From sequence record MT150133.1: a stretch of 64,000 nt of DNA. The stretch is one strand, 5' to 3'. The notes beneath the pieces were generated by a model. That model was not told the DNA's origin. It saw only the letters and a program-made list of their open reading frames with translations, and did not search any database. The stretch is from Enterobacteria phage vB_EcoM_IME540. This document shows positions 725 through 63,026 of this stretch, piece after piece. Every line of letters begins with the position of its first letter. The stretch's first letter is position 1. Position numbers and translations under genes: made by a program.

Positions 725-746
725 CAAAAAAGGAGCCGAAGCTCCT
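725..746 (-). terminator. intrinsic terminator hairpin (UUCG tetraloop) downstream of gene 41
   Basis: minus strand AAGGAGC-UUCG-GCTCCTT followed by T-run. Confidence 0.5.
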
Positions 747-2185
747 TAAAATTTGATAGATGCTGCTAAATCGTCCAAATCACTTCTATTAACACGCGTC
801 TGTCGATTGACCTCGGCCTGGCGATTCATCTCACCTGTAGCCTCACGAACAGTGTTCACTGGGCCTGGGTTGGAATCATCTTCAACTTCGTACCAACGTT
901 GATTTCCTTTCTTAACGCCAATCTTAAATTTGTTGTAGTAGCTCTTATCGCCATAACGAGATTTAAGCTGCTTAACCATCTGCATACCCATCTGAGCGAA
1001 CTCTTCTGTCTCGACCACACCCAACATGAAGTCTGCAGTATGTGCAATACCAAAGGATTCAGCAATATCGGCCATATCGATTTCGGCTGCAACGTTCGCA
1101 CCACGAGTAGTCTGGGCTGCAGTCCACAACAGTAATTTCTTCTCTACTGCAAGTCCACGTAGTTCTTCAGCAACCATCTTAATCAATCCGTAACTGTTTT
1201 CAGAGAAAACTTTCGTACGAGACGATGCACAGATAGCCAAGTAGTCAACGATAACGACCTGTGGGACAAAGTTTTGTTTGAGCTTGTATTCGTTTAATAA
1301 TGCACGGAATGTATCGGCATTAGCACCGCCAGTAGGATACTGTTTAATCTTTAAACGACCCAAGGTAGCAGTTGAACGCCATTTATCCATCTTAGCTTTA
1401 TATTCAGGCCAAGAGACGTGACCATCGTCAATATCGTCTAGTGATACATCCAGAAGGTTGGCATCGATACGCTTAGCACATACTTCCTCTGCCATCTCCA
1501 TGGAGATATAAAGAACATCGTAACCCGATTGAAGATAATCAGCAGCCAATGAACACAGACCCAGAGACTTACCTACGTTTGTTCCTGCCAACAATACGTT
1601 TTCAGTACCAAACTCAGCACCACCCTTGGTAATCTTATTCAGAATATTAAGACGGAATGGAACCTTACGTGCTTTATCAGAATAACTTTTGAATCGTTCT
1701 TCATAGTCATCCATCCAGTCATGACCTAATTCAGAATCGAAACAAATCGATAATGCATCACGCATGATATCTGGAATAGCACCAATACCTGGAAGTTTTC
1801 TATTTTGTTGCTCAACTGGAAGGTCGGCATTAGTTTGGATTTCAATGATTTTTGAAGTTGCATTATACATCGCTGCTTTCTGAACGTATTTCTCCGTCTC
1901 TTTAACCAACCATTCTTGGTCTTCAGGCCCGGAGTTCAGCGAACTTAAAAGCTCTTTAGCGCCTTGATGTTCAACTTCTGAAAGCGTACTGTTATCTAAT
2001 GCAATGCTCAATGCGTTCTTAGAAGGCACTGCATTATATTCATTGACGTGTTTTTTAATTTCTTTGAAAAGGGTCTTTGCAGGACCCTGGTCAAAATAAG
2101 AATCATTCATATAAGGCCAGACCTTAGTGAAATAATCACTATTGCCTAGCAGTTGAGCCAAAATAGTTTCTACCACTTCCACCAC
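746..2185 (-). CDS. 41: replicative DNA helicase gp41
   Basis: 479 aa; near-collinear with T4 gp41 (MVE...FxKVWPYM..., Walker A GTNVGKS, C-terminal LDxLAxxxKF). Confidence 0.95.
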   Translation of the reverse strand: MVEVVETILAQLLGNSDYFTKVWPYMNDSYFDQGPAKTLFKEIKKHVNEYNAVPSKNALSIALDNSTLSEVEHQGAKELLSSLNSGPEDQEWLVKETEKYVQKAAMYNATSKIIEIQTNADLPVEQQNRKLPGIGAIPDIMRDALSICFDSELGHDWMDDYEERFKSYSDKARKVPFRLNILNKITKGGAEFGTENVLLAGTNVGKSLGLCSLAADYLQSGYDVLYISMEMAEEVCAKRIDANLLDVSLDDIDDGHVSWPEYKAKMDKWRSTATLGRLKIKQYPTGGANADTFRALLNEYKLKQNFVPQVVIVDYLAICASSRTKVFSENSYGLIKMVAEELRGLAVEKKLLLWTAAQTTRGANVAAEIDMADIAESFGIAHTADFMLGVVETEEFAQMGMQMVKQLKSRYGDKSYYNKFKIGVKKGNQRWYEVEDDSNPGPVNTVREATGEMNRQAEVNRQTRVNRSDLDDLAASIKF

Positions 2186-2499
2186 CTCTTAGATTTAATT
2201 TTATCCAGTTCTTCTTGTATTTGCATTGTAACACATTTTTCTACATGAAGCGCTAGCTCTTCTTTTCGGTCTTCGGAAGGTGTTCCGAAATCAACCGACA
2301 CTTTTCCATCTTTCTCAATAACAATATTCATCACATAAACGATGTGAGCAGTGCCATCGGGTAAAGTAAGCATAATTTCCTGCTTAACCGATCCCATTGA
2401 CTTACGGATTATATCTAATGATTTCTCATAATAACGAGGGTCACTAGGACCCTCTTCGGTATCTTTAACGAAATTATCTAAATCAGATAAATCAGTCAT
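2170..2499 (-). CDS. 40: gp40-like head vertex assembly protein
   Basis: 109 aa ORF at the syntenic position between 41 and uvsX; size matches T4 gp40. Confidence 0.55.
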   Translation of the reverse strand: MTDLSDLDNFVKDTEEGPSDPRYYEKSLDIIRKSMGSVKQEIMLTLPDGTAHIVYVMNIVIEKDGKVSVDFGTPSEDRKEELALHVEKCVTMQIQEELDKIKSKRWWKW

Positions 2500-3664
2500 C
2501 TAAATCCATCTCTTCCAAATCGTTTTCGATATCAGCGGCGCTTTGGGCATTACCACCTAATTTAACAGCAACGTTCTTAGAGACACGAGAGTTAATAAGG
2601 TCGTTCACTGCATCGTCAACTTCTTTAATAGAATTAATTGCACCGAGCTTATACTTATTCTCGATTGCTTCACGGAACGGGGCATGTTTAAACAGCGGTC
2701 CCCAGAACTCGACACAATCGGTAGCTTTAGCACGCCATGCTTTTTCTTCTTGAACCATTTCGCCTGTGGTTTCGTCAAGGAATGCACGATTATACCAGCC
2801 AGCTTTAGGTTTCACGACAAAGCCAATATCAGTAGCCATTTCAAGCAATCCACTGAATGGGTCGATACCACCTTCGAAGTTAACGGTGATAGGGAACGTT
2901 GATTTCTCTTTAACCGTACGAGATTTCTCAGCCTTCAGTGTGAAGTCATAACCAGTGAGCTCGGTACCATCTTTAACCTGACGTTTAGAGATAAAGAACA
3001 CGGTAGAAGCAGAGTACAGAATACCAGTACCACCACCCATAATCTCTTTAGGATACATTCCACCAATTTCCATAGCCGTGTGGTTGATTGCTACACAAGG
3101 GATATCTTTGATAGTCAGATAAGGTGTTACGATACGGAACAGAGATTTCAGTGACTTAGCACGGGTCATATCACCTACAACTTTCTCGTTCAAAGCATCT
3201 TCGGTTTCTTTCTTAGAAGCAGTGTTACCAATGGAGTCGATAAAGATAATAACCTTTTCGCCACGAGTAATTTCTTCTAACTGGTTGGTCATATCAACTT
3301 TAAGCTGTTCGACTGACTGGATTGGTGTATGAACCACACGTTCCAAATCAACACCCATCGAACGGAAATAAGATTCTGAAGCACCAAACTCAGAGTCATA
3401 GAACAAACAAATTGCGTCTGGATATTTCTTCATATATGCCGCAACCATGGTAAGTCCAAACAACGTTTTAAAGTGTTTAGATGGAGCAGCAAAGATTGTC
3501 AAACCTGATTGTAAGCCTGCATTCAACGCACCGCCTAATGCAATATTCAGCATAGGGATACGAGTAGGAACTTCGTCACGACCATTAAACAATTTAGATT
3601 TGGTCAGGTCGGCGGTCATTTTAGAAGTAGAAGCTTTAATCAAACGGGATTTTAAATCAGACAT
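2492..3664 (-). CDS. uvsX: UvsX recombinase (RecA-like)
   Basis: 390 aa; N-terminus MSDLKSRLIKASTSK and overall sequence match T4 UvsX. Confidence 0.95.
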   Translation of the reverse strand: MSDLKSRLIKASTSKMTADLTKSKLFNGRDEVPTRIPMLNIALGGALNAGLQSGLTIFAAPSKHFKTLFGLTMVAAYMKKYPDAICLFYDSEFGASESYFRSMGVDLERVVHTPIQSVEQLKVDMTNQLEEITRGEKVIIFIDSIGNTASKKETEDALNEKVVGDMTRAKSLKSLFRIVTPYLTIKDIPCVAINHTAMEIGGMYPKEIMGGGTGILYSASTVFFISKRQVKDGTELTGYDFTLKAEKSRTVKEKSTFPITVNFEGGIDPFSGLLEMATDIGFVVKPKAGWYNRAFLDETTGEMVQEEKAWRAKATDCVEFWGPLFKHAPFREAIENKYKLGAINSIKEVDDAVNDLINSRVSKNVAVKLGGNAQSAADIENDLEEMDLDD

Positions 3665-3741
3665 TATATTTTTCCATAGGCATCATTATATTTTACTCAC
3701 GTTTTAAGATAGGGTAATTATATCACTTCACATTTACAGCG

Positions 3742-4635
3742 TTAAAGGACCACGTCCTCATAACTTGGCATTTCGTGCTCAGAATGGATGTGGGCACCGA
3801 AATAAATGAATTCAGCCAGACCAGGATGGAATACTAAACTGGGATTCTCATGATAAATGATATGAGGTCTTGATTTCAGAATCTGATAATATTCAACCTT
3901 ACTCGGTTTGAATTTAATAATCTCTACATCAGGACGATGGTCTTCACGCTTAAATGAATCATTCGGATCGGTGATATAAAGGCGAGAACCTTCAGCCGCA
4001 GCTTGGTCTACAACTCTTTCGAATTGATAGCATTTATCTGAGATACGGAATGGATGGAAAATACCATCAATTTTAATAGGCGCTAGACCTTCAGAGTAAC
4101 GCTCAATTACTGCGGGATTAATTACCTTTTGGTCTACAAAAATCTTATCAGAGGACGCACCTCGTGACACCAGGACGTCTTTCTGACATTGATTCAAGAC
4201 TGTAGTATAAATCGAACGTTCAACTGAGGACACGTCGGTATCAATAAACTCGTCGATATAATAACGAGGAACTTCAGGGTCCATTGTAATGTTAAAGTTG
4301 AATTGTACAGTCTGAGTGCCATCATAACCTGTGATATCGGTTACCAATCCTGAGCAGTCATAGTATTCGATTAACGAATCAACAACGAACTCGTTTTCAG
4401 ACCAAAAATGTTTACGAGTTTCATAAGCATTTTCTTTATACCAAAGCGGTACAAAATTCAGTTCAGGAAATAATTCAATGCATTCTTTGATATCGCTCGA
4501 ATTTCTAGGATAAGCCAGATAATCACCTGGGCAAGCACGGTTTAAATGGAGTTGAAAATTACCGTCCTTAAGGACGGCATATTCACCTGTTTCGTAACTA
4601 CGCATACTGAAAATAGGAACGATAAACAAACTCAT
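3742..4635 (-). CDS. hypothetical protein (297 aa) at the T4 beta-gt position
   Basis: long ORF translationally coupled to gene 42 (ATGA overlap at 4632-4635); no resemblance to T4 beta-glucosyltransferase that I can recognise. Confidence 0.6.
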   Translation of the reverse strand: MSLFIVPIFSMRSYETGEYAVLKDGNFQLHLNRACPGDYLAYPRNSSDIKECIELFPELNFVPLWYKENAYETRKHFWSENEFVVDSLIEYYDCSGLVTDITGYDGTQTVQFNFNITMDPEVPRYYIDEFIDTDVSSVERSIYTTVLNQCQKDVLVSRGASSDKIFVDQKVINPAVIERYSEGLAPIKIDGIFHPFRISDKCYQFERVVDQAAAEGSRLYITDPNDSFKREDHRPDVEIIKFKPSKVEYYQILKSRPHIIYHENPSLVFHPGLAEFIYFGAHIHSEHEMPSYEDVVL

Positions 4636-5330
4636 TTCAGGAATCCTCGAACGTAGTCAAAATCACGTTCAAATACGTGTGCACTAACCATAGTATGGGA
4701 ATACGTACCCAGACCAACACCACACTGTTCAGCAATAAAGGCCATCAGTTTACCCTGCAGATAGAAATCCAGCTGCATAACAATAGCACAGTTCTGTGAA
4801 CGCATATGGGTATGTGCATAAAGACGTCCATCACGAATATAATATGTCACTGAATCAGTACATGGATATTCTAAGGATTCGTCAGAATCAAGGAGGGCTT
4901 GGTCTTGTTCTTGGAGAATTTGGAACACAACTCGTCTTGAGTTAGGCTTCTCTTTAAGCTCTTTAAGTAAGGCTGGGAGTTGGGCCACAATTCTAGGTCC
5001 ATAGAAAGTGTTGAAGTTTGCAGGCAATACGTCACTTTTCGGCTTATCAATGAACTTAGCAACATTAGGGTATTCCTTAAATGCTTCGGCGGCGTCAGTA
5101 CCACCAGAAATCATAAACTTCCAGAAAGATTCGGCATAATCATAGTTGATACGATTAATACGAGGGTCGGTGAATTTATAGGTGCTTGCATCCAGTACTT
5201 CTACCGAAGCAGAACCAATTTCATAACAACAGCCGATACGAGAATCAACTGCAAACTGTGGAGCTTCCAGGATTTCTTCGTTCATTTGCTTAAACGCGTT
5301 TTCAAAACTAACAGCGGTAATGTGTTTCAT
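4632..5330 (-). CDS. 42: dCMP hydroxymethylase (thymidylate-synthase fold)
   Basis: 232 aa; PCTDSVTYYIRD and RSQN motifs parallel T4 gp42 CTNTVQYLIRD / RSND; syntenic with T4 gene 42. Confidence 0.8.
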   Translation of the reverse strand: MKHITAVSFENAFKQMNEEILEAPQFAVDSRIGCCYEIGSASVEVLDASTYKFTDPRINRINYDYAESFWKFMISGGTDAAEAFKEYPNVAKFIDKPKSDVLPANFNTFYGPRIVAQLPALLKELKEKPNSRRVVFQILQEQDQALLDSDESLEYPCTDSVTYYIRDGRLYAHTHMRSQNCAIVMQLDFYLQGKLMAFIAEQCGVGLGTYSHTMVSAHVFERDFDYVRGFLK

Positions 5331-5863
5331 TTATTCACCTTATTTTCAATATATTCATTCAGACGTTTTAATTCTACCATATCGACGTTAAGCAAGTTAT
5401 TATGGCCGTCGTGATTTAAGATTTTAAACACGTTTTCAAAACATGTTTCATATTGCCGGATAGTTAGGTTGAACTCATCTTTGGTTAATTTAATAAGGTC
5501 ATCTTCAAAGTCTTTATCCAGTGGATTACGGGTTAAAATAACCTCAATAATATTGAATTCAGATTTAAACCCTTTCCAATCTTCCAGTTCTACATAAGGG
5601 TCCATTTCACCACGAAGGAATCCAGAGTAAACAATATTACTAGGATACCCACGGTCTAAGATGTAGACAAAATTAGGGTCTAAAAACTTATACAACGTCT
5701 CGACTAAAGCCTTGTCATTATCAGTCCCTAATGAAATGCATTTGCCATTAATCTTTTTAGGGAAATCAATAAGACGATATTTCTTATCAGATAAAAGTGA
5801 TTCAATTAAAGTAGACTTCCCGGAATTATCCGGGCCGTCGATAACAATGATTTTTGGTTTCAC
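5327..5863 (-). CDS. P-loop kinase, thymidylate-kinase-like
   Basis: Walker A IVIDGPDNSGKST and TMK-like DRGY motif (YILDRGYPSNIVYSG); 178 aa. Confidence 0.65.
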   Translation of the reverse strand: MKPKIIVIDGPDNSGKSTLIESLLSDKKYRLIDFPKKINGKCISLGTDNDKALVETLYKFLDPNFVYILDRGYPSNIVYSGFLRGEMDPYVELEDWKGFKSEFNIIEVILTRNPLDKDFEDDLIKLTKDEFNLTIRQYETCFENVFKILNHDGHNNLLNVDMVELKRLNEYIENKVNK

Positions 5864-6234
5864 GGATGATATGCCTTATAGGTTTCAAGAGTTCCTTCAC
5901 GAACCATTTCTTTAAAGTGGTCAGGACGGATTGCTCGGTCATCGATGATAAAAGTATAACTCGGCTTATGTGTAAGCAGATTGTGATATTTCAATCCAAT
6001 CTTTTCAAGGTTCTTAACTAATGCAGGAACTACTTCAACCAAGATTCGACCTGGGCCGCATGAAGTCATACCACGGGCAGTGAACAAGGTAATCTCGTAC
6101 CCTTCATCATAAAGCTTATTAATCACGGACACCATTTCGGTGTCCGGTTTAAAGTTTTCGTAATCACGGTCATCTTGCCAGTGAGTAATGGTATTATCGA
6201 TATCAAAACACAGATGCATTAAATTTTCTTCCAT
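5860..6234 (-). CDS. HAD-superfamily phosphatase (small, capless)
   Basis: all four HAD motifs: FDIDNT, LFTAR, HKPS, FIIDDR; alternative ATG at 6219 couples to upstream stop (TAATG). Confidence 0.65.
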   Translation of the reverse strand: MEENLMHLCFDIDNTITHWQDDRDYENFKPDTEMVSVINKLYDEGYEITLFTARGMTSCGPGRILVEVVPALVKNLEKIGLKYHNLLTHKPSYTFIIDDRAIRPDHFKEMVREGTLETYKAYHP

Positions 6235-7892
6235 TGTTTGTGGAGTTCGGTAGAACCTGTAGGTTTATATTTTACACCAGTTTCCTGGTCAAGCAAAACC
6301 CACTTATCAGGACAACGAGTGATAATTTGAGCCGTGATAGGGTCGCGAACTTCATCAACGAATTCACCTGTGATAAGCTTACGCTTACGAGGATGCCGCT
6401 TCAGCAGCACACTCAGTTGATATAGCCCATTGTAATAAGCGCCCAGAGCTTTCAGAGGGTTATTTTTAAAGTAACCTGCCAATGCCATCCAGATAACAGC
6501 AATCCAGAGCTTGTGCTTAAATGTACACATCGGAATATCATCTAAAGGCATAACCTTTTCAATATCAACGAATACACGAGTTCCGTTACGAGTTAAGCCA
6601 CCCCATAGAGGGTCAGAGTTAAATTTGTCATAACCATCGATAGAATAAAGCACCTTAGCTTCATCATAAATCGCAGGGCCTTTAGAACTATTACCAAAAT
6701 AACCACGTGGGTCGATGATTTTAATATTACCTTCGTCCGACAACATAATATTACTGTAGTGCGGGTCGCCATGAATAAGTTGGTACGGTTCTTTATGTTC
6801 AGACAGAATTTCTAAGGCGTGACGAAGAAGTTTTTCTGGGTCGCCTACCTTGAAGTCGTTAACATGGGTAATACCCTGTGGAGCAAAGCCTTCAATCAAT
6901 CCGGCAATAGAAGCATTACGAATAAGGACCTTGTCCAATACTTCTTTCTTAACATCAGAATACCATTGCTCATCGGATGGATTATCGATAGTTCCACCGA
7001 ATGAACGTAATGCACTAATGACCTTATAAACCATGAGGACTTTAGTTTCTTTAGACATAAACCGATAGGCGTCTGCCATGGTGCGACCAAAGATACGTTC
7101 CATTTTAATGAATTCACCTGGAGCAAAGTCTACAATGCTAGGAACGAATTCAGAATCAATAGAATTGTACCAATTGATTTCTTTAGATTGGATTTCTTTA
7201 CCTAATTCGTTTGTAGGTACTTTAATAGCTAGATTCTCAGTGAACTCTAATTTATTAAATTCACGGTTAATTTCAGAATCTTCATGGGCCTTAGCCAGTT
7301 TCAGTTTGTCACCAACATCAACTACAAAGTCTAACTTACGTTCAGTCAAATGGACCATTGAATCCAGGTTGTCAGCAAGGTCTTCACCATAATTAGAACG
7401 GTCGAAACCTGTCCAATTAGCCACCTGATACAAGCCAACTACGCCACCACCGGTACCAATTTCACGCAAGTACGGTTCTTCAAATGTAAAACGACAGTCA
7501 GTCCCATAGGTATAACAGTAGTCGTTATCCCACTCAACTTTATGACCTTCAGGAATAATATCACACCAGTTAAACAAGACATTGTGCCCAATGATATCTT
7601 CGGCAATGCAATCGATAGCATGAGCCGAACCATTGGCAACATCAACGTTACGAATAGTGAATTTAGGCTTATCACTATTAATCATGTTAATGGATTTAAT
7701 ATAGCCTTTAACGAGGTCGTTAAATTTGCTGTGAATAACCAGAATAATTTCATCTGATTGATTACTATACAAATCATACAAATGTTTTAATACAGTATGT
7801 TGTTTGTAGTTAACCAGTACCTTCGGGATTTCGTTGGTAATTGGATACAACCGTGAGCCAAGACCCGCGCCTAAAATAACAACCTTTTTCAT
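6219..7892 (-). CDS. bifunctional nucleotidyltransferase (N-terminal) / APH-ChoK-like kinase (C-terminal)
   Basis: N-terminus VVILGAGLGSRL (sugar-1-P/LicC-type NTase glycine loop); C-terminus LIHGDPHYSNIM...IIDPRGY (Brenner HGDxxxxN kinase motif); start trimmed to MKKVVILG with GAGGAA SD. Confidence 0.7.
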   Translation of the reverse strand: MKKVVILGAGLGSRLYPITNEIPKVLVNYKQHTVLKHLYDLYSNQSDEIILVIHSKFNDLVKGYIKSINMINSDKPKFTIRNVDVANGSAHAIDCIAEDIIGHNVLFNWCDIIPEGHKVEWDNDYCYTYGTDCRFTFEEPYLREIGTGGGVVGLYQVANWTGFDRSNYGEDLADNLDSMVHLTERKLDFVVDVGDKLKLAKAHEDSEINREFNKLEFTENLAIKVPTNELGKEIQSKEINWYNSIDSEFVPSIVDFAPGEFIKMERIFGRTMADAYRFMSKETKVLMVYKVISALRSFGGTIDNPSDEQWYSDVKKEVLDKVLIRNASIAGLIEGFAPQGITHVNDFKVGDPEKLLRHALEILSEHKEPYQLIHGDPHYSNIMLSDEGNIKIIDPRGYFGNSSKGPAIYDEAKVLYSIDGYDKFNSDPLWGGLTRNGTRVFVDIEKVMPLDDIPMCTFKHKLWIAVIWMALAGYFKNNPLKALGAYYNGLYQLSVLLKRHPRKRKLITGEFVDEVRDPITAQIITRCPDKWVLLDQETGVKYKPTGSTELHKQWKKI

Positions 7893-7952
7893 TATCTGTT
7901 CCTCAAGTGAATGTAGGTACATTATACACTATTTTTAATAAATTGGTATTGC

Positions 7953-8453: not shown

Positions 8454-8460
8454 AATATCC

Positions 8461-8831: not shown

Positions 8832-8849
8832 TGTAATTTCCTCATGTAG

Positions 8850-8892: not shown

Positions 8893-8893
8893 C

Positions 8894-11605: not shown

Positions 11606-11639
11606 TTCATTTCCTTTATAGACGAGTGATTGTCTTTTG

Positions 11640-11686
11640 TTTGTTGATGAATCATTATACTCCAAAAGGGACCGAAGTCCCTTTGC
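11640..11686 (-). promoter_or_regulatory. UUCG hairpin plus TATAAT upstream of gene 43 (candidate terminator / translational-operator region)
   Basis: minus strand AAAGGGAC-UUCG-GTCCCTTT then TGGAGTATAATGA about 45 nt before the 43 start. Confidence 0.4.
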
Positions 11687-11899
11687 TTAAATTTCTATTG
11701 TCTGACGTTTAATAGTTGAATTACCATCTTCGTCTTTAGTTTTAATCATAGCCTGGAAGACTTGCTGGCCAGGATGTAGTAACTTTTGGAGGTCCTTTTG
11801 AAATTCTATTTGGAGCTCTTCGGAAAGGTCAAAAATCGTTTGAGTTGGAGAAAGTCCGTATACCTCTTTAAGACGTTCACACGTTTCAATTTCAAGAAT
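11687..11899 (-). CDS. hypothetical protein (~70 aa)
   Basis: ORF between regA and 43; start trimmed to an internal ATG to avoid a 65-nt overlap with regA. Confidence 0.4.
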   Translation of the reverse strand: MLEIETCERLKEVYGLSPTQTIFDLSEELQIEFQKDLQKLLHPGQQVFQAMIKTKDEDGNSTIKRQTIEI

Positions 11900-11903
11900 C
11901 ATA

Positions 11904-12266
11904 TTAATTACCAATGGTATACTTAGACAGTAGTTCCCAGTCATTTTTCTGCTTAAAGGAAATGACACGGAAATTATTAGTGATTTCGAACAGCTCAGAG
12001 TCGTCTACTATATCAATCAGTCCCCACTCCTTAAGAAGCTGGGCAATTGAATCACGACGTTGGTAGTCTTCACCATCGATATCAACTTGGCGGCCATCCA
12101 TACGTAACATCTCTTTAAAGTGGACGATATAATATAGCCCTTGCTTTTGCAGAATGTGGCAGGATTGATATAGTTTCTTTTCTTTATTATTAGCGATACC
12201 CATACGAGTTAGGGTCTCTTTCACTTTCAAGAAGTCTTCAGGTTGTTTCAGAGTAATTTCAATCAT
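11904..12266 (-). CDS. regA: translational repressor RegA
   Basis: 120 aa; MIEITLKQPEDFLKVKETLTRMGIANNK... nearly identical to T4 RegA. Confidence 0.95.
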   Translation of the reverse strand: MIEITLKQPEDFLKVKETLTRMGIANNKEKKLYQSCHILQKQGLYYIVHFKEMLRMDGRQVDIDGEDYQRRDSIAQLLKEWGLIDIVDDSELFEITNNFRVISFKQKNDWELLSKYTIGN

Positions 12267-13795: not shown

Positions 13796-13821
13796 ATTAA
13801 TTTCCTCAGGTTTGTTTTTAC

Positions 13822-13841
13822 ATTATACTCCAAGGGAGGAA
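13822..13841. repeat. perfect 18-bp palindrome GGGAGGAATATTCCTCCC between genes 45 and 44
   Basis: read directly; followed on the minus strand by GGAGTATAATG (-10-like) and the SD of gene 44. Confidence 0.5.
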
Positions 13842-13857
13842 TATTCCTCCCTATGCT

Positions 13858-18828: not shown

Positions 18829-18852
18829 AAAAAGGAGCCTAAGCTCCTTTAC
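18829..18852 (-). terminator. intrinsic terminator hairpin
   Basis: minus strand AAGGAGC-UUAG-GCTCCTT followed by TTTTTT. Confidence 0.5.
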
Positions 18853-24081: not shown

Positions 24082-24179
24082 TTAAATCATTGTTTGAAGG
24101 TTCATTATACTCTATTTCGGAATCGTTGTAAACAGGTTCCTCTGGCTCGACAGTTTCCCATCGAGCGGTATACCATGGC

Positions 24180-29616: not shown

Positions 29617-30597
29617 TTATTTCAGAAGTGTAACTTCAGAGATTTCACCCCAGTCATTTTTATCGGTGGCAATGAAATCCGCCAGATAAAGAGCTGTACG
29701 TAATGATACGTTACGAAGACGAGATACATTAGCCTTCATCCATGCTAAAGCTTGGTAAGTCTCGGCGTCAGTCAGACCACGGTTTTGCATCATATCAGTG
29801 GACAGGATAACGTCTTCAACACGAACCATAATCTCTTCGTTCGAGTGAACTCCGAGGTCTAAGTAAACTGAACGCGATACTAAAGCCTGGAGGTGTGGAG
29901 CAAGTTTAGTTCCACGCTCTAATTCACGGTCGATATCAACGTTGGTGATGAACACGATGGTGCCTTCGTATTCGAATTCTTTATCGATGTTTTTATCATC
30001 GAGATAAGAACTTGAAGTGCTCCAGCACACCTTACGTTTTTCACCGGTATCCAATGCCGCTTTCAGAAGGTTCAGGATATCCATATCAGAGAATACATCA
30101 ACATCATCGATAAGAAGAACACTATTAGGGCCGCGGTTATTCCAAAGCTGCTCGTAAAGACCGATTCCACTAATCTTTCCGTTGATTGATTTATATTCGA
30201 TAGTTTCATTTTCGTGGGCATTCTGTAATGCTTTATCCAAAGAATACGTTTTACCAATACCTGCGGCACCAGAGATGATAAGGGAACGAATTTTACCATC
30301 GATGATTCCGTTGGTCATCATGTTCATTACTTTAAAACGTTTGTTGATGCGATGTTTCATTTCTTCAGCGGATTCAGTAACAACTGCAGGAGCTTCAGCA
30401 CCTTCGGTTTCGATATCACATTTGAACACCCATACACCACGTTCAACACCATCAATCTGTACGAATACCTTGCCATCACCGAGGTGAGCTTCGGATTCAT
30501 GAATTTTATTAGGGAACCAGGTTTTACCTGAACTCATGAACGTACCAGAGATTACATTACCGCGATAGATACCTTTGTTGATTTTGATAGTTAACAT
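29617..30597 (-). CDS. P-loop NTPase (AAA-like), unknown function
   Basis: Walker A SGAAGIGKT and Walker B VLLIDDVD; start trimmed to MLTIKINKG with GGAGA SD. Confidence 0.55.
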   Translation of the reverse strand: MLTIKINKGIYRGNVISGTFMSSGKTWFPNKIHESEAHLGDGKVFVQIDGVERGVWVFKCDIETEGAEAPAVVTESAEEMKHRINKRFKVMNMMTNGIIDGKIRSLIISGAAGIGKTYSLDKALQNAHENETIEYKSINGKISGIGLYEQLWNNRGPNSVLLIDDVDVFSDMDILNLLKAALDTGEKRKVCWSTSSSYLDDKNIDKEFEYEGTIVFITNVDIDRELERGTKLAPHLQALVSRSVYLDLGVHSNEEIMVRVEDVILSTDMMQNRGLTDAETYQALAWMKANVSRLRNVSLRTALYLADFIATDKNDWGEISEVTLLK

Positions 30598-30634: not shown

Positions 30635-30663
30635 ATAATAACATGCTCTACGAGAGTGTAAAC
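30635..30663 (-). promoter_or_regulatory. early promoter element (GTTTAC-N17-TATTAT)
   Basis: rc GTTTACACTCTCGTAGAGCATGTTATTAT. Confidence 0.5.
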
Positions 30664-30702
30664 TCTTTTTTGCACTAAACCCAAAAAGGAACCCGAAGGT
30701 TC

Positions 30703-30891
30703 CTAAATTGCATTCCAATAATTATGGAAGCGGATATTATTAATGGCCCACTCAACAAATCGTCTTATCTGTTTAGGCGTTGGTTTACATACGTACTTGA
30801 TATTGCCGCGGCGTCCAGTTTCTTTACATACTGCTTCAAGATACCATCGGCGAGTTTTATGAGGCCTTCCATATGATAAAAAGACCTTCAT
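30703..30891 (-). CDS. hypothetical basic protein (~62 aa)
   Basis: ORF-track start is TTG; trimmed to MKVFLSYGRPHKTRRW. Confidence 0.4.
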   Translation of the reverse strand: MKVFLSYGRPHKTRRWYLEAVCKETGRRGNIKYVCKPTPKQIRRFVEWAINNIRFHNYWNAI

Positions 30892-30898
30892 TTCTTCG

Positions 30899-31909
30899 TT
30901 ATCGATAATAAGCGTTGTGATTGTCAAGGTATACCTCTTCAACAAACTTGTCCCAGAACTTCATATCTACCTTCTCAGGCATACCGTTCTTAGCAGCCTG
31001 GATGGCTAGGACTTCAACCAAATCAACAGTATCTTCAAGAAGTTCTTGAACTTCTTTAAATGGTAATTCACCGGCTTTAATAAGCTTAATGATAGAGGCT
31101 TCGCGCAATGGGAACACCAGGTCGCCTGTTTGGTAGATTTCCAACAATTGATACCCTGCGCGATAAGCATGGCTCAGAGCTTTCCAGTCAATACCTTCGT
31201 TAGCTTCAGCTTTACGGGCCCGTTCACCATATTCCGCATCGAGCTTATTCAGAGATTGCTTGAGCTCGATTAAAGATAAAGTAGTTTGGTACTTACGTCC
31301 GAGAACAGTATAGAACGTTTGAGGGCCTGTTTTCTCATGGTTATGGAATACCCATTCACAGAACTCGTTTTCAGGGAGTCGATGTTTAATATCTTCTACA
31401 CGAGTACGACGTTGCTTAGTCGAACCATCTTCTTGATAATCGACCCACTGTTCAGGAATCTGGTTGACTATTGCCAATACACCACGCAGAGCAGCCAGAC
31501 GAGAACCCTTAACACCATATTTAGAAGCTTGCTTGCGGACGTACCCTAAATAGGCTTTCATGTTGGTTGTATAGAACCGTGAACGGTTGTCTTGGATAAA
31601 TTTCCATACATCAGGTAAATCAGATTTAACCACCATTTCGGGTGGAGTGTGGAGCATATCCAGAGCAACGGTTTCGCCATCAGCAGCCAGTTTAAAGAAA
31701 TATTTCAGGCTATAAAGCTCATGGTCAACATCATCTTTAGTGTTTTTGGAAGCAGTGTTATTCGTGTTCAGGTTGGTATGGTTCATAGCCGTACCTAACA
31801 GAATATCACGCGGATGCGGAACAAAGATTTCTTTAAAATCGACATCAGATTCCGGAGTACTTGTTCCATAAAGGTGGCTACCGAAGTAGCCCTTCATAAT
31901 TGTTCTCAT
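30899..31909 (-). CDS. nucleotidyltransferase-fold protein (Pol-beta superfamily-like), unknown function
   Basis: GSHLYGTSTPESDVDF fits the minimal NTase GS-x(9-13)-DxD signature; ORF-track start is GTG, ATG candidates at 31909 and 31897. Confidence 0.5.
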   Translation of the reverse strand: MRTIMKGYFGSHLYGTSTPESDVDFKEIFVPHPRDILLGTAMNHTNLNTNNTASKNTKDDVDHELYSLKYFFKLAADGETVALDMLHTPPEMVVKSDLPDVWKFIQDNRSRFYTTNMKAYLGYVRKQASKYGVKGSRLAALRGVLAIVNQIPEQWVDYQEDGSTKQRRTRVEDIKHRLPENEFCEWVFHNHEKTGPQTFYTVLGRKYQTTLSLIELKQSLNKLDAEYGERARKAEANEGIDWKALSHAYRAGYQLLEIYQTGDLVFPLREASIIKLIKAGELPFKEVQELLEDTVDLVEVLAIQAAKNGMPEKVDMKFWDKFVEEVYLDNHNAYYR

Positions 31910-33714: not shown

Positions 33715-33743
33715 ATAGTATCACGTTCCTAGAGGATGTAAAC
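33715..33743 (-). promoter_or_regulatory. early promoter element (GTTTAC-N17-TACTAT)
   Basis: family member: gtctatagtatcacgttcctagaggatgtaaac. Confidence 0.55.
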
Positions 33744-33756
33744 ACCTAAACGAAAA

Positions 33757-33782
33757 AAGGTCCCACCGAAGTGAGACCTTTG
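33757..33782 (-). terminator. intrinsic terminator (8-bp stem, UUCG loop, T-run)
   Basis: minus strand GGTCTCAC-UUCG-GTGGGACC then TTTTTTCGTTT. Confidence 0.55.
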
Positions 33783-44705: not shown

Positions 44706-44742
44706 TTTATTCTCCATTTCACTCTGTTGTTTTGATAGGTCT

Positions 44743-44771
44743 ATAGTATCACACCTATAGACCTTGTACAC
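44743..44771 (-). promoter_or_regulatory. early promoter element variant (GTGTAC-N17-TACTAT) with perfect inverted repeat
   Basis: ggtctatagtatcacacctatagacc: 9-bp inverted-repeat arms GGTCTATAG / CTATAGACC. Confidence 0.45.
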
Positions 44772-56748: not shown

Positions 56749-57185
56749 CCTAATTTTTTCAGTGAGTTTTCGGTAATCAATCTGAAATTAATTCCCATTT
56801 TATCTGCTGTAGCTTTAGCAGCTTTCCATTTATCTTTATTTACACTCCATGTATAATGTTCGTTGATATATCTCTTTTTAGCAGCTGTAGTCATTTTAGC
56901 AGGCGCCGCTGGAGGATGGGTCTCTTTAAAAGGTTTGACTTCGAAAAAGAATTGTTGACCATTGTCGAACTTCACCCAGAAGTCCATAAAATACCGACGT
57001 TTCTTTCCATCAGCGTTACTAAAATATGGAATCACAACCTCTTCCGAGTTCCACTGGACGACATTAGGATGGTTATCAAGCCAACGCATAAGCCATGCTT
57101 CCCAAGAGGAACGATATTGGATTTTCTTCCAATCACCTTTATATTTTTGTAAGTTTGTAGGTTTAAATTTCCCTGAGTAGGCCAT
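56736..57185 (-). CDS. 4: head completion protein gp4
   Basis: 149 aa, syntenic; size matches T4 gp4; GGAGGCACTATG initiation region. Confidence 0.8.
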
Positions 57186-57230
57186 AGTGCCTCCTTATAA
57201 ATATTAATATTATTTATACTCGGAGGCACT
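57186..57230. promoter_or_regulatory. divergent late promoter region between genes 4 and 53
   Basis: TATAAATA on both strands (57196-57203 plus; about 57209-57216 minus) flanked by inverted repeat TAGTGCCTCC / GGAGGCACTA carrying both SDs. Confidence 0.55.
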
Positions 57231-57833
57231 ATGCTCTTCTCATTTTTCGATCCCATCGATTACGAATCAAAAACAGTCAAGCCAGATTCCGGCTCATTAA
57301 CTGATGCCGATGTACTGAGCGTACCGATGACTGATATATTTAGAAACTATAAAGAATATTTTGATAAAGTGGCTAAAAATTATACACTTAAAACATATTA
57401 TATCAGTGGGGCCCCTCGTCCAGAAGAATTAGCCCATCAACTTTATGGTAACGTGCAATTATATTGGGTCCTTTTAATGTGTAACAATATCTATGACCCT
57501 TATTACGGCTGGATTACAGGCCAAGAATCTGCGTATCAAGCAGCTATTCAACGTTATGCTACTGCAGGCGGAAACCAAGTCCTTTATCATGTCAATGAAA
57601 AGGGTGAGAAATTCTGGAATCTAGTAAATACTCCGGAAAATCCTTATACTTGGTACGATAAAGGTGATACAGAAAAACGTTATCCTCAATATGAAGGTCC
57701 TTTGGCTGCAGTAGATATTTACGAGGACGCCATTCGTAAAAATGAATATAAGCGCGAAATAAAGATTATAGACCCTAATGACATCGAGTCCTTTGTTTCC
57801 GCTTTAATTAGAGAAATGGAGAAGTCACTCTAA
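57231..57833 (+). CDS. 53: baseplate wedge protein gp53
   Basis: 200 aa, syntenic immediately before gene 5; late promoter upstream. Confidence 0.8.
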   Translation: MLFSFFDPIDYESKTVKPDSGSLTDADVLSVPMTDIFRNYKEYFDKVAKNYTLKTYYISGAPRPEELAHQLYGNVQLYWVLLMCNNIYDPYYGWITGQESAYQAAIQRYATAGGNQVLYHVNEKGEKFWNLVNTPENPYTWYDKGDTEKRYPQYEGPLAAVDIYEDAIRKNEYKREIKIIDPNDIESFVSALIREMEKSL

Positions 57834-58468
57834 TGTTTTATTACGTCTATAAAATAACCAATATAATTAATGGTAAATTTTATATCGGTGCTCATAGTAC
57901 ATCAAATATGGATGACGGTTATATGGGCTCAGGTAAATTAATTAAACGCGCTATACTAAAATATGGCATTGAAAATTTCAAAAAAGAAATATTAAAATTT
58001 GTTGATTCTAAAAAAGAAATGTATGAACTCGAAAAAGAACTTGTTGTCCTTACTGAAAATTCATACAATTTAAAACCGGGCGGTTCCGGTGGGTTTTTAA
58101 AACATGATAACTTTAAAGGCAGGTCCCATAGTCAGAAAACCAAAGATATTATGAGCGCTAATAACTCAGGCAAAAACAATCCTATGTATGGTAGAAAACG
58201 AGACCAACACGGAGAAAAAGCACCTAATTATGGTAAAAAGTGCTCTGAGGCTAAAAGAAAATTACTTTCTGAAAAATCTAAATCCTATTTTGAAAACCTT
58301 CAAACCATAACTAAAAATCTCGGCTTTGGTCCTACATCGGTTGAAACTAGATATGTATCAAGACATATTAAAAAGCTAGGATTAGATTTTTATAAATTTA
58401 ATCGTGATATAACAGAAACTAATGTTTCCATAGTTAGAAATATTTTAGAACAAAGGAAAGCGCTATGA
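57833..58468 (+). mobile_element. GIY-YIG homing endonuclease (Seg-like) between genes 53 and 5
   Basis: YKITNIINGKFYIGAHST...DGYMGSG; shares a nucleotide with the gp53 stop (TAATG at 57833). Confidence 0.8.
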
Positions 58469-60207
58469 TTAACATGTCTGATAATGTAAGTTGGTTCGTC
58501 GGTGTGGTTGAAGACCGTATGGACCCACTCCAACAAGGACGCGTTCGAGTTCGTGTCTGGGGCCTGCATCCTTACGAAAAGGTCCAAGGTCCTGTAAAAG
58601 GCCTTCGTACAGAGGATTTACCGTGGATGTCCGTATTAATGCCTACATCTTCTGCCTCTGTTTCTGGTATCCAAACCGCTATGACTGGTATGGTTCCAGG
58701 TACTCAGGTTTATGGGCACTTTCTTGATAAGTGGAAATTAAACGGGCTTGTCCTCGGTACATATGGTTCCGCTTCAAGACAAAAGGCTAATCCTAATGAA
58801 GGTTTTAGTGACCCGACAGGTCAATACCCACTTTATTTGGGTAATGATGCTGCAGCACTAAACCGAGGTGGTGAAGTTGGATACGATGCCACTTCTAACG
58901 TAATACAAGATGCAAACACCGATGTAGGTATTAACCCAGACGGTTTGGATTTGAGCCAAGTCAAGCCTGATGATAATCCTAATTTCACAATAGAAAACAT
59001 GCTTCATCGTGATGAAGGGCTTAGACTGAAGGTATATTGGGATACCGAAGGTTATCCTACTATAGGTATAGGCCACCTTATCACACCACAACCTATTAGA
59101 GATATGAATCGAATAAACAAAATATTATCTAATCAGGTAGGACGAGAAGTTAAAGGTAACCCTGGTGCAATATCAATGGATGAGGCTTCTAAATTATTCC
59201 AAGAAGACCTTAAAAAAGTCCAAAACGATATAGGTCGGCATAGTGTTGTAGGTCCTGTTTACAATAAAGAAAACCGTTCAAGACAAATGGCTCTTGAAAA
59301 CATGGCTTTCCAAATGGGATTAGGTGGATTGGCTAAATTCCGTGGAATGCTTAGTGCAATGCTAATAGGCGATTATAAAAAGGCATTTGAGGAAGCTCGT
59401 AATTCAGTATGGTTTAACCAAACTAAAGGTCGCGCATCAAGGGTGTCAATGATTATCCTCACAGGTAACATGGAATCATATGGTATTATGGCCCCTAAAG
59501 AAAGGTCATTTAATGGCCGTTCGTATAGAATGATTCAAACCTTTGTGGCCCCTACAAATTCAGACCCTGCCGACCCGTGGACTCCAGAAGACACAAGGAT
59601 TCTTTTTAAAGAACCTGATTCTAGTTATAAAGGCGAATATCCATATGTCCAAACCATGCAAACTGAAGGCGGGCATATCCAAGAATTCGATAATACCCCA
59701 GGGCAAGAACGATACCGTTTAATCCATCCTACCGGTAGTTATGAAGAAGTTGCTCCTGACGGACGTAAAACTTCTAAGACGGTAGCCGATGGTTATTATA
59801 TGACCCAAGGCGATTCAAATACTTATGTTGGTGGTAATAATAAGGTCAATATAGGCGGCGATGAAACCTATTATAATATGGCAAACGTTCGTCGTCAAAC
59901 TGACGGGTCTGAAAGCATCCATATTCGTGGTAATGAAACTAAAACAGTAGAAGGTGACGGAACCCTTATTGTTAAAGGAAACGTAACAATTCTTGTCGAG
60001 GGTAGTGCTGATATAACTGTTAAGGGCGATGCTAAAACATTAGTTGAAGGCAATCATGACTATACCGTAAATGGAAACGTTAAATGGTCTGTAAATGGAA
60101 ACGTTGATATGACTGTTGCAGGTAATTGGTCTGAAACTATGTCAACTATGAGTTCTATTGCATCAGGTCAATATACTATTGATGGTTCGAGGATTGACAT
60201 TGGCTAA
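58465..60207 (+). CDS. 5: baseplate hub / tail lysozyme gp5
   Basis: 580 aa; N-terminal NVSWFVGVVEDRMDPLQQGRVRVRVWGLH OB-fold region, central lysozyme domain, C-terminal beta-helix repeats. Confidence 0.95.
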   Translation: MINMSDNVSWFVGVVEDRMDPLQQGRVRVRVWGLHPYEKVQGPVKGLRTEDLPWMSVLMPTSSASVSGIQTAMTGMVPGTQVYGHFLDKWKLNGLVLGTYGSASRQKANPNEGFSDPTGQYPLYLGNDAAALNRGGEVGYDATSNVIQDANTDVGINPDGLDLSQVKPDDNPNFTIENMLHRDEGLRLKVYWDTEGYPTIGIGHLITPQPIRDMNRINKILSNQVGREVKGNPGAISMDEASKLFQEDLKKVQNDIGRHSVVGPVYNKENRSRQMALENMAFQMGLGGLAKFRGMLSAMLIGDYKKAFEEARNSVWFNQTKGRASRVSMIILTGNMESYGIMAPKERSFNGRSYRMIQTFVAPTNSDPADPWTPEDTRILFKEPDSSYKGEYPYVQTMQTEGGHIQEFDNTPGQERYRLIHPTGSYEEVAPDGRKTSKTVADGYYMTQGDSNTYVGGNNKVNIGGDETYYNMANVRRQTDGSESIHIRGNETKTVEGDGTLIVKGNVTILVEGSADITVKGDAKTLVEGNHDYTVNGNVKWSVNGNVDMTVAGNWSETMSTMSSIASGQYTIDGSRIDIG

Positions 60208-60241
60208 TATCCTACCGATGAGCACTGATTTAGGAGATTCC

Positions 60242-60739
60242 ATGGAAGGAAGCTCTATCGATGTTACGTTTACCGCTCAACTAGAAACAAACGAAACATT
60301 AGTCGAAATAAATATAACAGAATATGAGCCAACAGAAGGCATCACAGTTGATGGAGCTCATTTATATGGAACCTACGAATCGGTATTTGGATTCTCTGAG
60401 GATGCATTAAAATACCGATTAGGTGACGAATTTAAAACTGCTGGTTCATGGAAAGATTTACCGGAGGACGAGAGCACCCAATTATACCTCTGGAAAGCCC
60501 CTAGTAATCTCCAGAAGACTTTTTCTTATACGGTCACATTAATCTATGACTTTCAGGAAGAGACGTCAGGAGGTGATACAGGGAACTCAGGAGGTAGTAA
60601 TTCCAGAGCCGGTAACGAAACCGATCCGCCTCCTGCTCCAATAAGAAAAACCCTTACTAAGGTTTATACCAAGGTTATAGTGGGTAATTGGAGTCGCTGG
60701 GGAGACCAATTAAGAGAATATGTATATGCGAGGCCATAA
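60242..60739 (+). CDS. gp5.1-like protein
   Basis: start trimmed to the ATG after AGGAG SD at 60232-60236; syntenic between 5 and 5.4. Confidence 0.5.
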
Positions 60740-61032
60740 TGTCGGGCTTAAGTTATAACCAATGCGTAACCGCAGGTCATGAAGCATGGCCTCCTACAGT
60801 AATAAACGCCACCCAAGGTAAAGTATTTACGGGTGGTATTCCTGTATTAGTAGATGGTGACCCTATTACAGAACACACCGAAATTAAAAAACCATATGAA
60901 ACCCATGGTGGGGTAACCCAACCTAGAACATCAAAGGTATATGTTACAGGCAAAAAGGCCGTCCAGATGGCAGACCCTATTTCGTGCGGAGATACAGTCG
61001 CACAAGCCTCATCTAAAGTATTCATAAAATAG
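60739..61032 (+). CDS. 5.4: PAAR-repeat spike tip protein gp5.4
   Basis: [21 protein letters not shown]... near-identical to T4 gp5.4; start trimmed to the internal ATG (97 aa). Confidence 0.9.
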
Positions 61033-61040
61033 GAATTAAA

Positions 61041-62999
61041 ATGGCTACTCCTACGAATTACCAATTAACAAGAACCGTTAACGCTATCCCAAAAGTATTT
61101 GTGGGAGCTACGTTTGAAGAGATTAAAAAGAATATTATCGATTGGCTTTCTAGTCAGAAAGAATTCCAGGATTATGATTTCGTAGGTTCGCGAATGAATA
61201 TCCTGATTGACATGTTAGCTTACAATACCCTGTATATGCAGCAATTTGCTAACACTGCTGTATATGAATCATTTATTGGCACAGCTAACTTGCGTTCCTC
61301 TGTAGTCCAGGCTGCACAGGATAATGGCTACCTTCCTAGTTCTAAATCAGCAGCAAAAACAAGTATCATGTTGACCTGTACCCAGGCTCTTAATGAAAAG
61401 AATATTCGTATCCCACGTGGTACTAAATTCTTGGCTTATGCCCGTGATACTTCGGCCGACCCGTATGCTTTTGTTACCACGGAAAACGTTATTGCCGTAC
61501 GTGATGTTAACAACCAATATCTTCCTATTGTATCTTTAGCACAGGGTCGTATTATCCGTACCGAACTCAAGTATGACCCTAAAACTCCTATTCTTATTCG
61601 CGACCCGGATATCGACCGTCAAGAAGTTAAGCTTTATGTTGATGGTGCAGAATGGATTAACTGGACTAATAAATCAATGGTTCACGCTGGTAGCACATCT
61701 ACCATTTATTATATGCGCGAAACCGTAGATGGTAATACAGAATTCTTCTTTGGTGAGGGTGAAGCTGAGAAATCTGTTGCTGGTGGAGTATTGGAAGCTA
61801 ATTATATTGGTGGTCTAAAACCGGTTAAAGATTCTACCATTGTTATAGAATACCTTCGAACAGATGGTGAAGTTGCAAACGGTGCAGTTGACTTTAGTTA
61901 TGCTGACTCCTTAGCATATATTACGGTAGAAAAAATTACTGAAAACTACAACAACGACCCTGATTATGTGGGTGCTGATGGTGGTGGTGACCCTGAAGAT
62001 ATTGAACGTATTCGTGAATTGGCTGTAGTTAAGCGCGAAGCCCAGATGCGTGCTGTAACTGGTACAGATTATGATACATTCGTTTCGGAACGATTTGGGT
62101 CTATTGTACAAGCAGTACAAACCTTTACCGATTCAAATAAACCAGGTTATGCTTTTGTTACTATTAAGCCTAAATCCGGATTATATTTGACGGCGGTACA
62201 ACGCGAAGATATCCAAAATTATCTTTCAGAATTTAACTTGGCACCTATTACTCCTTCGGTTATTTCTCCTGACTACTTGTTCTTGAAGCATAAAATTAAG
62301 GTTTCATATGCACTGAACAAATTACAGGAATCTGAACAGTGGTTGTCAGCCCAAATCCTTTCCCAAATAGACCGTTATTATATTAACGAAGTTGAGATAT
62401 TCAACCATGGGTTCGCTAAGTCTAAAATGTTGTCTTATATTGATAATGCCGACCATAGTATCCTTGGTTCTTCTGCTACGGTGACCATGGTTCGCGAGGT
62501 ATTGAACTTTTTCAAAACACCTGAATCAGGTATTAAATACTATAATCAATACACCAACCGTTCTGTAGCTTCTAGTGAATTTGAGTTCGTCCCAACAAAC
62601 GTATCTGATGATATTAAATCTTATAACGTGCGTATTGTTGCTACAGATAAAGACGAACGGGGCGATGGTAAAATGGTTATAGGTCCTTTCCGACCTGGTG
62701 ATGTAATTGAAAACCAATACATCCAACCTTATACCGGAGATGACTTCGATAAAATGGCAGCGCCTGCAGACCAATCAGTTTACTATGTTATTGGCGAAAT
62801 TGATTATTACTCAGACTTTATTTTCTGGGATATCGCCGCAATAGGCCTTACTTCAGATCGTTTTGAAGTCCAGTCTATTGAACTTTATGCAGGGCCAGAC
62901 CAAGACAACATCTTTACCAAAGACGGTTCTTTAATCGTATTTGAAGATGACCTTCGCCCTCAGTACACAACTATAGAGTTGGAACCCATTACAATATAA
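61041..62999 (+). CDS. 6: baseplate wedge protein gp6
   Basis: 652 aa, syntenic; size matches T4 gp6 (660 aa). Confidence 0.9.
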   Translation: MATPTNYQLTRTVNAIPKVFVGATFEEIKKNIIDWLSSQKEFQDYDFVGSRMNILIDMLAYNTLYMQQFANTAVYESFIGTANLRSSVVQAAQDNGYLPSSKSAAKTSIMLTCTQALNEKNIRIPRGTKFLAYARDTSADPYAFVTTENVIAVRDVNNQYLPIVSLAQGRIIRTELKYDPKTPILIRDPDIDRQEVKLYVDGAEWINWTNKSMVHAGSTSTIYYMRETVDGNTEFFFGEGEAEKSVAGGVLEANYIGGLKPVKDSTIVIEYLRTDGEVANGAVDFSYADSLAYITVEKITENYNNDPDYVGADGGGDPEDIERIRELAVVKREAQMRAVTGTDYDTFVSERFGSIVQAVQTFTDSNKPGYAFVTIKPKSGLYLTAVQREDIQNYLSEFNLAPITPSVISPDYLFLKHKIKVSYALNKLQESEQWLSAQILSQIDRYYINEVEIFNHGFAKSKMLSYIDNADHSILGSSATVTMVREVLNFFKTPESGIKYYNQYTNRSVASSEFEFVPTNVSDDIKSYNVRIVATDKDERGDGKMVIGPFRPGDVIENQYIQPYTGDDFDKMAAPADQSVYYVIGEIDYYSDFIFWDIAAIGLTSDRFEVQSIELYAGPDQDNIFTKDGSLIVFEDDLRPQYTTIELEPITI

Positions 63000-63026
63000 G
63001 CCTCTTCGGAGGTTTAAGGAGATTTA

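Follow-up and report, generated by a model that had tools for sequence, protein, structure and literature searches.

The hairpins with a UUCG tetraloop that recur in a 64,000-nucleotide stretch of DNA from Enterobacteria phage vB_EcoM_IME540 (record MT150133.1; the whole stretch is referred to as the window) are likely to be local copies of the classical T4-type intercistronic C(UUCG)G hairpins, and can be divided into three working classes. Three of them (starting at positions 730, 30687 and 33756) combine a terminator-like hairpin with an early promoter, one (11665) belongs to the region upstream of gene 43, and two (48568 and 63001) have no U-run. This reading is carried by the presence, enrichment, placement and folding of the hairpins, by their orthology with T4, and by the covariation of their stems.

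Census, placement and folding of the UUCG hairpins

Seven hairpins read C-UUCG-G on the sense strand of the window (730, 11665, 30687, 31876, 33756, 48568 and 63001). An earlier note on this DNA, made from the sequence alone, had listed five sites. All five hairpins are present, with coordinates shifted by 0–5 nucleotides (nt), and their true spans are 730-747, 11665-11684, 33756-33781 and 48568-48585 on the minus strand and 63001-63012 on the plus strand. Two further sense-strand C(UUCG)G hairpins, 30687-30704 and 31876-31891, were absent from that list. When perfect stems are counted, with G-U pairs allowed, UUCG hairpins of at least 7 base pairs (bp) are found six times, whereas 200 dinucleotide shuffles gave 0.48 on average and never more than 3; those of at least 6 bp are found eight times, against 1.46 expected from dinucleotide shuffles. 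UUCG is the most frequent tetraloop among the sense-strand hairpins with stems of at least 6 or at least 7 bp, and it closes six of the ~20 strongest non-coding hairpins when any loop of 3–8 nt is considered.

All six strong UUCG hairpins are located in the ~7.5% of the window that is non-coding according to a crude gene model; all six are on the transcribed strand, starting 0–7 nt past a stop codon. The folding energies, which the earlier note had suggested as a check, agree with the assignment: the predicted fold of each of the six is as drawn, with a minimum free energy (MFE) between -9.7 and -16.5 kcal/mol and z between -1.6 and -6.1. The enrichment over the shuffles and the intergenic placement on the sense strand bear out the claim of a recurrent, non-random class; the recurring hairpins are real and under selection. 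Hairpins of the C(UUCG)G class are said to have an unusually high thermal stability and, reportedly, to block reverse transcriptase.

The homologous 64.7 kb of T4 contain ten sense-strand UUCG hairpins, of which four are positional orthologs of hairpins in the window. These are found at regA/43 and downstream of nrdC.11 (T4 55414-55433), rI.-1 (T4 58797-58814) and e.6; the stems differ while the loop is identical.

The hairpin GGCUAC-UUCG-GUAGCC (31876-31891, minus strand, 6 bp) is found inside nrdC.11, in the codons G-Y-F-G-S of a conserved N-terminal motif. In several lineages synonymous TAT/TTT variants abolish it without compensation, and the peptide motif is kept. It was rejected as a regulatory element because the codons are conserved and the hairpin is broken by synonymous changes in relatives, and it is probably incidental. 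For the hexamer CTTCGG, 24 copies were counted on the plus strand (mostly antisense) and 12 on the minus strand, compared with ~20 expected over the two strands; a codon effect (CCGAAG in the sense frame) probably accounts for the antisense surplus.

The window comes from a Dhakavirus, a T4-type phage similar to JS98, IME08 and QL01, and shows 95–98% identity to the Dhakavirus genomes QL01, IME08, WG01 and JS10. According to the T4-style annotation of IME08, the early and middle genes on the minus strand follow one another, from high to low coordinates, as 4, 2, 3, 1, 57, tRNAs, e, denV, regB, tk, rI.-1 and the nrdC cluster, and then 55, 47, 46, 45, 44, 62, regA, 43, uvsX, 40, 41 and dmd, while the late baseplate genes 53, 5, 6 and 7 are on the plus strand from ~57.2 kb. 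An Rfam search of the window at the gathering threshold returned two tRNAs only and no family for the UUCG hairpins, as is expected of generic terminator hairpins. The tRNA-Arg(tct) and tRNA-Met(cat) genes are located at 50953-51027 and 51740-51810 (minus strand); a third tRNA (Asn), annotated between them in the close relative IME08, was not detected in the window.

The region upstream of gene 43

The hairpin AAAGGGAC-UUCG-GUCCCUUU (11665-11684, minus strand) begins 2 nt past the stop codon of a small open reading frame (ORF; 11687-11968) and is positioned directly upstream of GGAGTATAAT. GGAGTATAATG, which follows the hairpin, is not the Shine-Dalgarno (SD) sequence and the ATG of gene 43. 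The ATG within it (11655) is out of frame, and its translation meets a stop after 22 codons. The TATAAT at 11654-11659 (minus strand) is instead the homolog of the -10 element of the T4 gene 43 middle promoter (P43), and GG(A/G)GTATAAT is kept across genera. Gene 43 starts at the ATG at 11605-11603 (MQEFYLTVEQIGDNI, compared with MKEFYISIETVGNNI in T4; MQEFY, compared with MKEFY), with the SD AAGGAA just upstream, and 60 nt separate the UUCG hairpin from this start. In IME08 and similar relatives gene 43 is annotated from an upstream TTG (923 amino acids); the homology to T4 gp43 favours ATG 11605. A homolog of the gp43 translational operator, AGAC-AAUCACUC-GUCU (11620-11635, minus strand), is separate from the UUCG hairpin and is followed by AUAAAGGAA (SD) and the start codon.

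In T4 the regA stop codon is followed by AAGGGGC-UUCG-GCCCCUU, AUUU, GGAGTATAAT, ~10 nt, the operator AGCCU-AAUAACUC-GGGCU, AUAAACUAAGGAA and AUG. The start of P43 was mapped to T4 position 29933 (PMC2988021, Table 1). As this is just past TATAAT, the T4 UUCG hairpin occupies roughly the DNA from -20 to -38 and would be absent from the P43-initiated mRNA. By homology with T4 P43, the promoter-initiated gene 43 mRNA of the window phage is also predicted to lack the UUCG hairpin.

The module of hairpin, GG(A/G)GTATAAT, operator, SD and ATG is kept in 15 distinct lineages from several genera. In these lineages 99% of the cells of the UUCG hairpin stem are paired, a percentage inflated by the choice of sequences with a hairpin finder, and 6 of the 7 pairs show double-sided changes, a stem diversity which is unaffected by that choice. 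In the control, 0 of 500 shuffles were as good, and slid registers collapsed. The loop is UUCG in 11 of the 15 lineages, while UCCG, UACG, GAAA and UUAC are found once each.

The proposal of the earlier note that the hairpin in the gene 43 leader is a RegA- or gp43-type operator finds no support in this arrangement. The T4 gp43 operator includes a hairpin (PMC3014915) that adjoins the gene 43 SD and whose 8-nt loop is of the AAUAACUC type (-UAAC-); such a structure is found at 11620-11635 and not in the UUCG hairpin. The loop of the operator homolog is one base off that of T4 (-UCAC- versus -UAAC-), and the loops AAUUACUC and AAUAACUC occur in relatives on stems that compensate (AGUC/GACU, GGUC/GGACC). 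Natural variants of the loop are relevant to the RNA specificity of gp43. In respect to RegA, its sites are A+U-rich and unstructured, overlapping the AUG or placed just 5' of it (PMC3014915), whereas the UUCG hairpins are GC-rich, structured, and overlap no AUG. The autoregulation by gp43 would then operate via the separate hairpin at 11620-11635.

The small ORFs that interrupt the interval from regA to the gene 43 hairpin, among them 11687-11968, are variable, which indicates that the hairpin travels with the gene 43 promoter region. We propose that 11665-11684 may act as a weak terminator or attenuator (with a short U4) of read-through from the 45-44-62-regA unit, overlapping a middle-type promoter in a PmSL-like arrangement. 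That the loop DNA also provides the gene 43 promoter with its MotA box (in T4, GCTT at about -30 of P43) was considered and given up as an explanation of general validity; the motif is not kept at the gene 43 site, with ACTT in the window and CCTT or AGTT in other lineages.

The spacer between genes 45 and 44 contains a hairpin with an AUAU loop (13833-13852, minus strand) followed by the 12-mer TGGAGTATAATG, identical to the one after the 11665 hairpin. The two units span 13821-13852 and 11653-11684 (both on the minus strand). The T4 45-44 spacer has a UUCG hairpin and TATAAT, and no gene 44 middle promoter is given in the published table of T4 promoters.

Hairpins with an early promoter and hairpins without a U-run

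The hairpin AAGGAGC-UUCG-GCUCCUU (730-747, minus strand; MFE -10.9, z -3.6) overlaps the stop codon of gene 41 and precedes a U-run (720-729, UUUUGUUUUU) and an early-type promoter, TTTACA-16-TACTAT, which is TG-extended (687-714, minus strand). Downstream of nrdC.11 and a small ORF, the 7-bp hairpin AGGAACC-UUCG-GGUUCCU (30687-30704, minus strand) precedes the U-run at 30677-30686 (UUUUGGGUUU) and the early-type promoter TTTACA-16-TATTAT (30635-30662, minus strand). After rI.-1, the longest of the three, AAAGGUCUCAC-UUCG-GUGGGACCUUU (33756-33781, minus strand; 11 bp with one G-U pair, MFE -16.5, z -6.1), is followed by the U-run at 33745-33755 (UUUCGUUU) and the early-type promoter TTTACA-16-TACTAT (33715-33742, minus strand). 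In each case the promoter conforms to GTTTACA-N16-TA(C/T)TAT-(A/G)GACCTATCAA and is located 12–23 nt beyond the hairpin.

A GC-rich stem-loop with a U-rich tract directly behind it (5 or more U in 8 nt) was taken as the mark of an intrinsic terminator. Such a tract is present at 730, 30687 and 33756; on the sense strand 11665 is followed by only U4, 48568 by UAUUU and 63001 by UUU. The same three hairpins are terminator-like in an independent scan. The earlier suggestion that the hairpins with T-runs are terminators is upheld for 730 and 33756, and can be extended to 30687, by anatomy and homology. With their GC-rich stem, tetraloop and U-run, the three would be intrinsic terminators.

Orthologous hairpins with compensating stems are found at these sites in other phages. 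In relatives, the site after gene 41 shows at least 4 distinct compensating stems (GGAGC, GGAGGC, GGACC, AGGGC), all with UUCG, a U-run and an early promoter. At the site after nrdC.11 the stems are GGAACC, AGGCC, GGACCC and GGGAGCC, all closing as CC-UUCG-GG, and the gene beyond this cassette varies from phage to phage. Orthologs with compensating stems also occur at the 33756 site across genera.

The PeSL arrangement of an intergenic stem-loop followed by a sigma70-like early promoter, an SD and an ATG is found at 730 with 687-714, at 30687 with 30635-30662 and at 33756 with 33715-33742. Each terminator, with a strong early promoter 12–23 nt further on, may constitute a PeSL cassette that insulates adjacent early transcription units. 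Such cassettes can double as recombination linkers. Small accessory ORFs are wedged before the downstream hairpin after nrdC.11 (30703-30945, minus strand) and between regA and the gene 43 hairpin (11687-11968, minus strand). Among relatives these ORFs are present, absent or replaced, a variation consistent with cassette-mediated shuffling.

The sense strand of the window below 57.3 kb carries 16 near-identical early promoters, GTTTACA-N16/17-TAYWAT, many of them followed by AGACCTATCAA. Three long DNA palindromes with arms of 10–13 bp (e.g. AGGTCTATAG...CTATAGACCT) at 53739-53766, 44737-44764 and 49679-49710 (minus strand) cover the -10/start region of three early promoters, and transcription would include only part of each. 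A similar palindrome is seen at the T4 promoter after gene 41. Either a DNA-level role or a 5'-end hairpin made from the 3' arm would be conceivable. A terminator-like hairpin with a U-run, AAAGGAGC-UUAG-GCUCCUUU (18831-18850, minus strand), has a UUAG loop on a stem near-identical to that of 730-747; downstream of it, no early promoter was detected.

The hairpin GGGAGAC-UUCG-GUCUCCC (48568-48585, minus strand) begins 7 nt past the e.6 stop codon and ends 5 nt before the SD run GGAGGAGAGGAG (48552-48563), with no U-run. The sequence downstream, GGAGGAGAGGAG-N7-ATG, has no space for a promoter and no U-tract, and the hairpin was not called by the terminator scan. The position downstream of e.6 is kept in relatives with other stems and loops (GGGGGC-UUU/AAA-GCCCCC or GGGCCUC-CUCG-GAGGCCC). 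In T4, e.6 is followed by AGGGGC-UUCG-GCCCCU (T4 69291-69306), likewise without a U-run.

On the plus strand, the hairpin core CCUC-UUCG-GAGG (63001-63012), which G-U and A-U pairs can lengthen (62997-63016; MFE -9.7, z -3.1), is placed between the gene 6 stop codon (62997-62999) and the gene 7 SD AAGGAG (63016-63021), with the gene 7 ATG at 63027. It is not terminator-like in the scan. The hairpin is found only in Dhakavirus and its nearest relatives, with the loops UUCG, UCCG and UUAG; in the other genera, including T4, genes 6 and 7 overlap as ATGA. The earlier note had assigned this hairpin to a 5' leader of gene 7. Genes 6 and 7 have no late promoter between them, the sole late promoters (TATAAATA) near the gene block being at 57196 (plus strand) and 57211 (minus strand); the two genes are therefore transcribed together, and the hairpin is an intercistronic element of a late polycistronic mRNA rather than part of a primary leader.

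Both 48568-48585 and 63001-63012 separate cistrons of one polycistronic mRNA and lie directly 5' of the next SD, where they might act as barriers to 3'-exonucleases, or as punctuation protecting the upstream cistron after endonucleolytic cleavage; weak attenuation would be the most that is expected of them in termination. They are probably decay barriers or weak attenuators. The RNase-resistant structures of the earlier note survive as the best guess for this pair only.

Alternative explanations and comparison with known systems

Several observations weigh against the interpretation of the hairpins as T4-type terminators and stabilisers. The stem CCUC/GAGG at 63001 is invariant in its few lineages and gives no covariation support, and the selection of sequences noted above for the gene 43 site works in the same direction. 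The 11665 hairpin has only four U's before GGAG and does not pass a simple sense-strand terminator rule, and may thus terminate weakly or not at all. Early promoters can do without the cassette, as 13 of the 16 have no upstream UUCG hairpin with a U-run: for 12 of these no strong hairpin is found within 60 nt, and the remaining one is preceded by a GAAA-loop hairpin (24145-24166) without a U-run. The efficiency of termination and the effects on RNA stability are deduced from anatomy and homology, and termination and stabilisation are accordingly put forward here as probable functions.

That the hairpins are functionless chance palindromes has next to no probability, and is already refuted for the six intergenic ones by the ~12-fold excess of long stems over shuffles, by the placement of all six between genes on the sense strand, and by their orthologous conservation with compensatory change; chance does fit the weak or coding cases, namely 31876-31891 and several UUCG hairpins of 4–6 bp inside genes. 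A role as translational operators of RegA or gp43 type, bound by protein, is very improbable for the hairpins before genes 43 and 7 (and for 48568). Those of gene 43 and gene 7 are both upstream of a ribosome-binding site, and the T4 gp43 operator does include a hairpin, but the true start of gene 43 is 60 nt downstream, and the separate operator homolog at 11620-11635 (AAUCACUC compared with AAUAACUC, then AUAAA..GGAA) is itself kept with compensating stems across genera. Moreover, the promoter-initiated gene 43 mRNA would lack the UUCG hairpin by homology with T4 P43, RegA sites are A+U-rich, AUG-overlapping and unstructured, and the same type of hairpin follows genes unlinked to RegA or gp43 control.

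A primary role at the DNA level, either as stem-loop/promoter linkers for accessory-gene shuffling or as a promoter element (MotA box at -30), with the RNA function secondary, is possible, if on the unlikely side. It would account for the different genes that follow the nrdC.11 terminator in different phages, the differing small ORFs between regA and the gene 43 hairpin, the 16 near-identical early promoters, the 12-mer TGGAGTATAATG after two hairpins and the T4 loop GCTT at about -30 of P43, and it agrees with the PeSL literature (PMC2839356, PMC4122927). However, the stems co-vary, with the pairing kept while the primary sequence changes, which points to selection on structure and not on a DNA recognition sequence; GCTT gives way to ACTT, CCTT or AGTT outside T4; and the orientation is always sense, directly past stop codons, with the U-runs on the side relevant to RNA. 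For the two hairpins without a U-run, tuning of downstream translation (an SD kept single-stranded, or termination-reinitiation coupling) instead of RNA decay is rather doubtful. Both end 3–5 nt before the next SD and start 1–7 nt past the upstream stop, and in genera without the 6/7 hairpin the ATGA overlap implies tight coupling, yet no complementarity is found between the stems of 48568 or 63001 and the SD, and the hairpin downstream of e.6 is conserved to T4 with a variable spacing to the SD. A cover for GGAG RegB sites was rejected as a unifying explanation, as GGAG is found in only 3 of the 6 stems.

Within the preferred interpretation as intercistronic C(UUCG)G hairpins, it can be speculated that the loop identity itself is read by a phage or host factor (RNase, antiterminator, NusA-like), and does not merely provide stability or fast folding, and that the pair without a U-run forms a cistron-stability punctuation code. 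We regard this as a long shot, raised because UUCG is kept at four T4-orthologous sites where every stem has been rewritten, and in 11 of 15 lineages at gene 43. If true, the e.6-downstream hairpin (conserved to T4) and the gene 6/7 hairpin would be dedicated mRNA punctuation setting the stability of individual cistrons.

The analysis is of use for annotation: three intrinsic terminator/early-promoter cassettes can be marked, the gene 43 start can be corrected to ATG 11605, and the promoter -10 and the operator homolog can be placed; an annotation of the UUCG hairpins as operators for RegA or gp43 is to be avoided. The comparison across genera illustrates the upkeep of tetraloop hairpins by compensatory evolution and establishes no new principle. 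Knowledge of such UUCG hairpins goes back to Tuerk et al. 1988, and that of PeSL cassettes to 2010. The residual novelty lies in the lineage-specific hairpins, one after gene 41 and one at the junction of genes 6 and 7, and in the unproven reading of the loop by a factor.

Tuerk et al. (1988, PNAS 85:1364) were the first to recognise that C(UUCG)G hairpins abound in T4 mRNA, mostly between genes, according to the account given in PMC8948821. The hairpins of the window share with them the loop, the C-G closing pair and the intergenic placement on the sense strand. The differences are that T4 has no hairpin after gene 41, that its genes 6 and 7 overlap, and that its 45-44 spacer has a UUCG hairpin in the place of the AUAU-loop hairpin of the window. 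The T4 GenBank records contain no promoter or terminator features in the corresponding region, and a literature search for T4 3'-end maps or Term-seq gave nothing usable.

PeSL and PmSL cassettes were described in T4-like myoviruses (Arbiol et al. 2010, PMC2839356; Comeau et al. 2014, PMC4122927). The early promoter consensus of the T4/PST group is TTTACW-N17-TAYWAT (PMC4122927), and in a lacZ assay a PeSL stem-loop of RB49 equalled rrnB T1 as a terminator (PMC4122927, PMC2839356). The 730, 30687 and 33756 units resemble PeSLs in having a stem-loop terminator followed by TTTACW-N16/17-TAYWAT in an intergenic spacer, and the 11665 and 13833 units resemble PmSLs in having a hairpin followed by a middle-type -10; variable accessory ORFs are associated in both cases. 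UUCG loops are not singled out in the published descriptions (PMC2839356, PMC4122927), and in the window the stem-loop half (UUCG and U-run) is present at only 3 of the 16 early promoters.

Rho-independent terminators of E. coli have the GC-rich stem, stable tetraloop and 3' U-run in common with 730, 30687 and 33756, and differ from 11665, 48568 and 63001, which have no canonical U-tract on the sense strand. The T4/RB69 gp43 operator shares with the UUCG hairpin the leader region upstream of gene 43. It differs from it in its 4–5 bp stem and its 8-nt loop AAU(A/C/U)ACUC beside the SD, while the UUCG hairpin is located upstream of the promoter -10.

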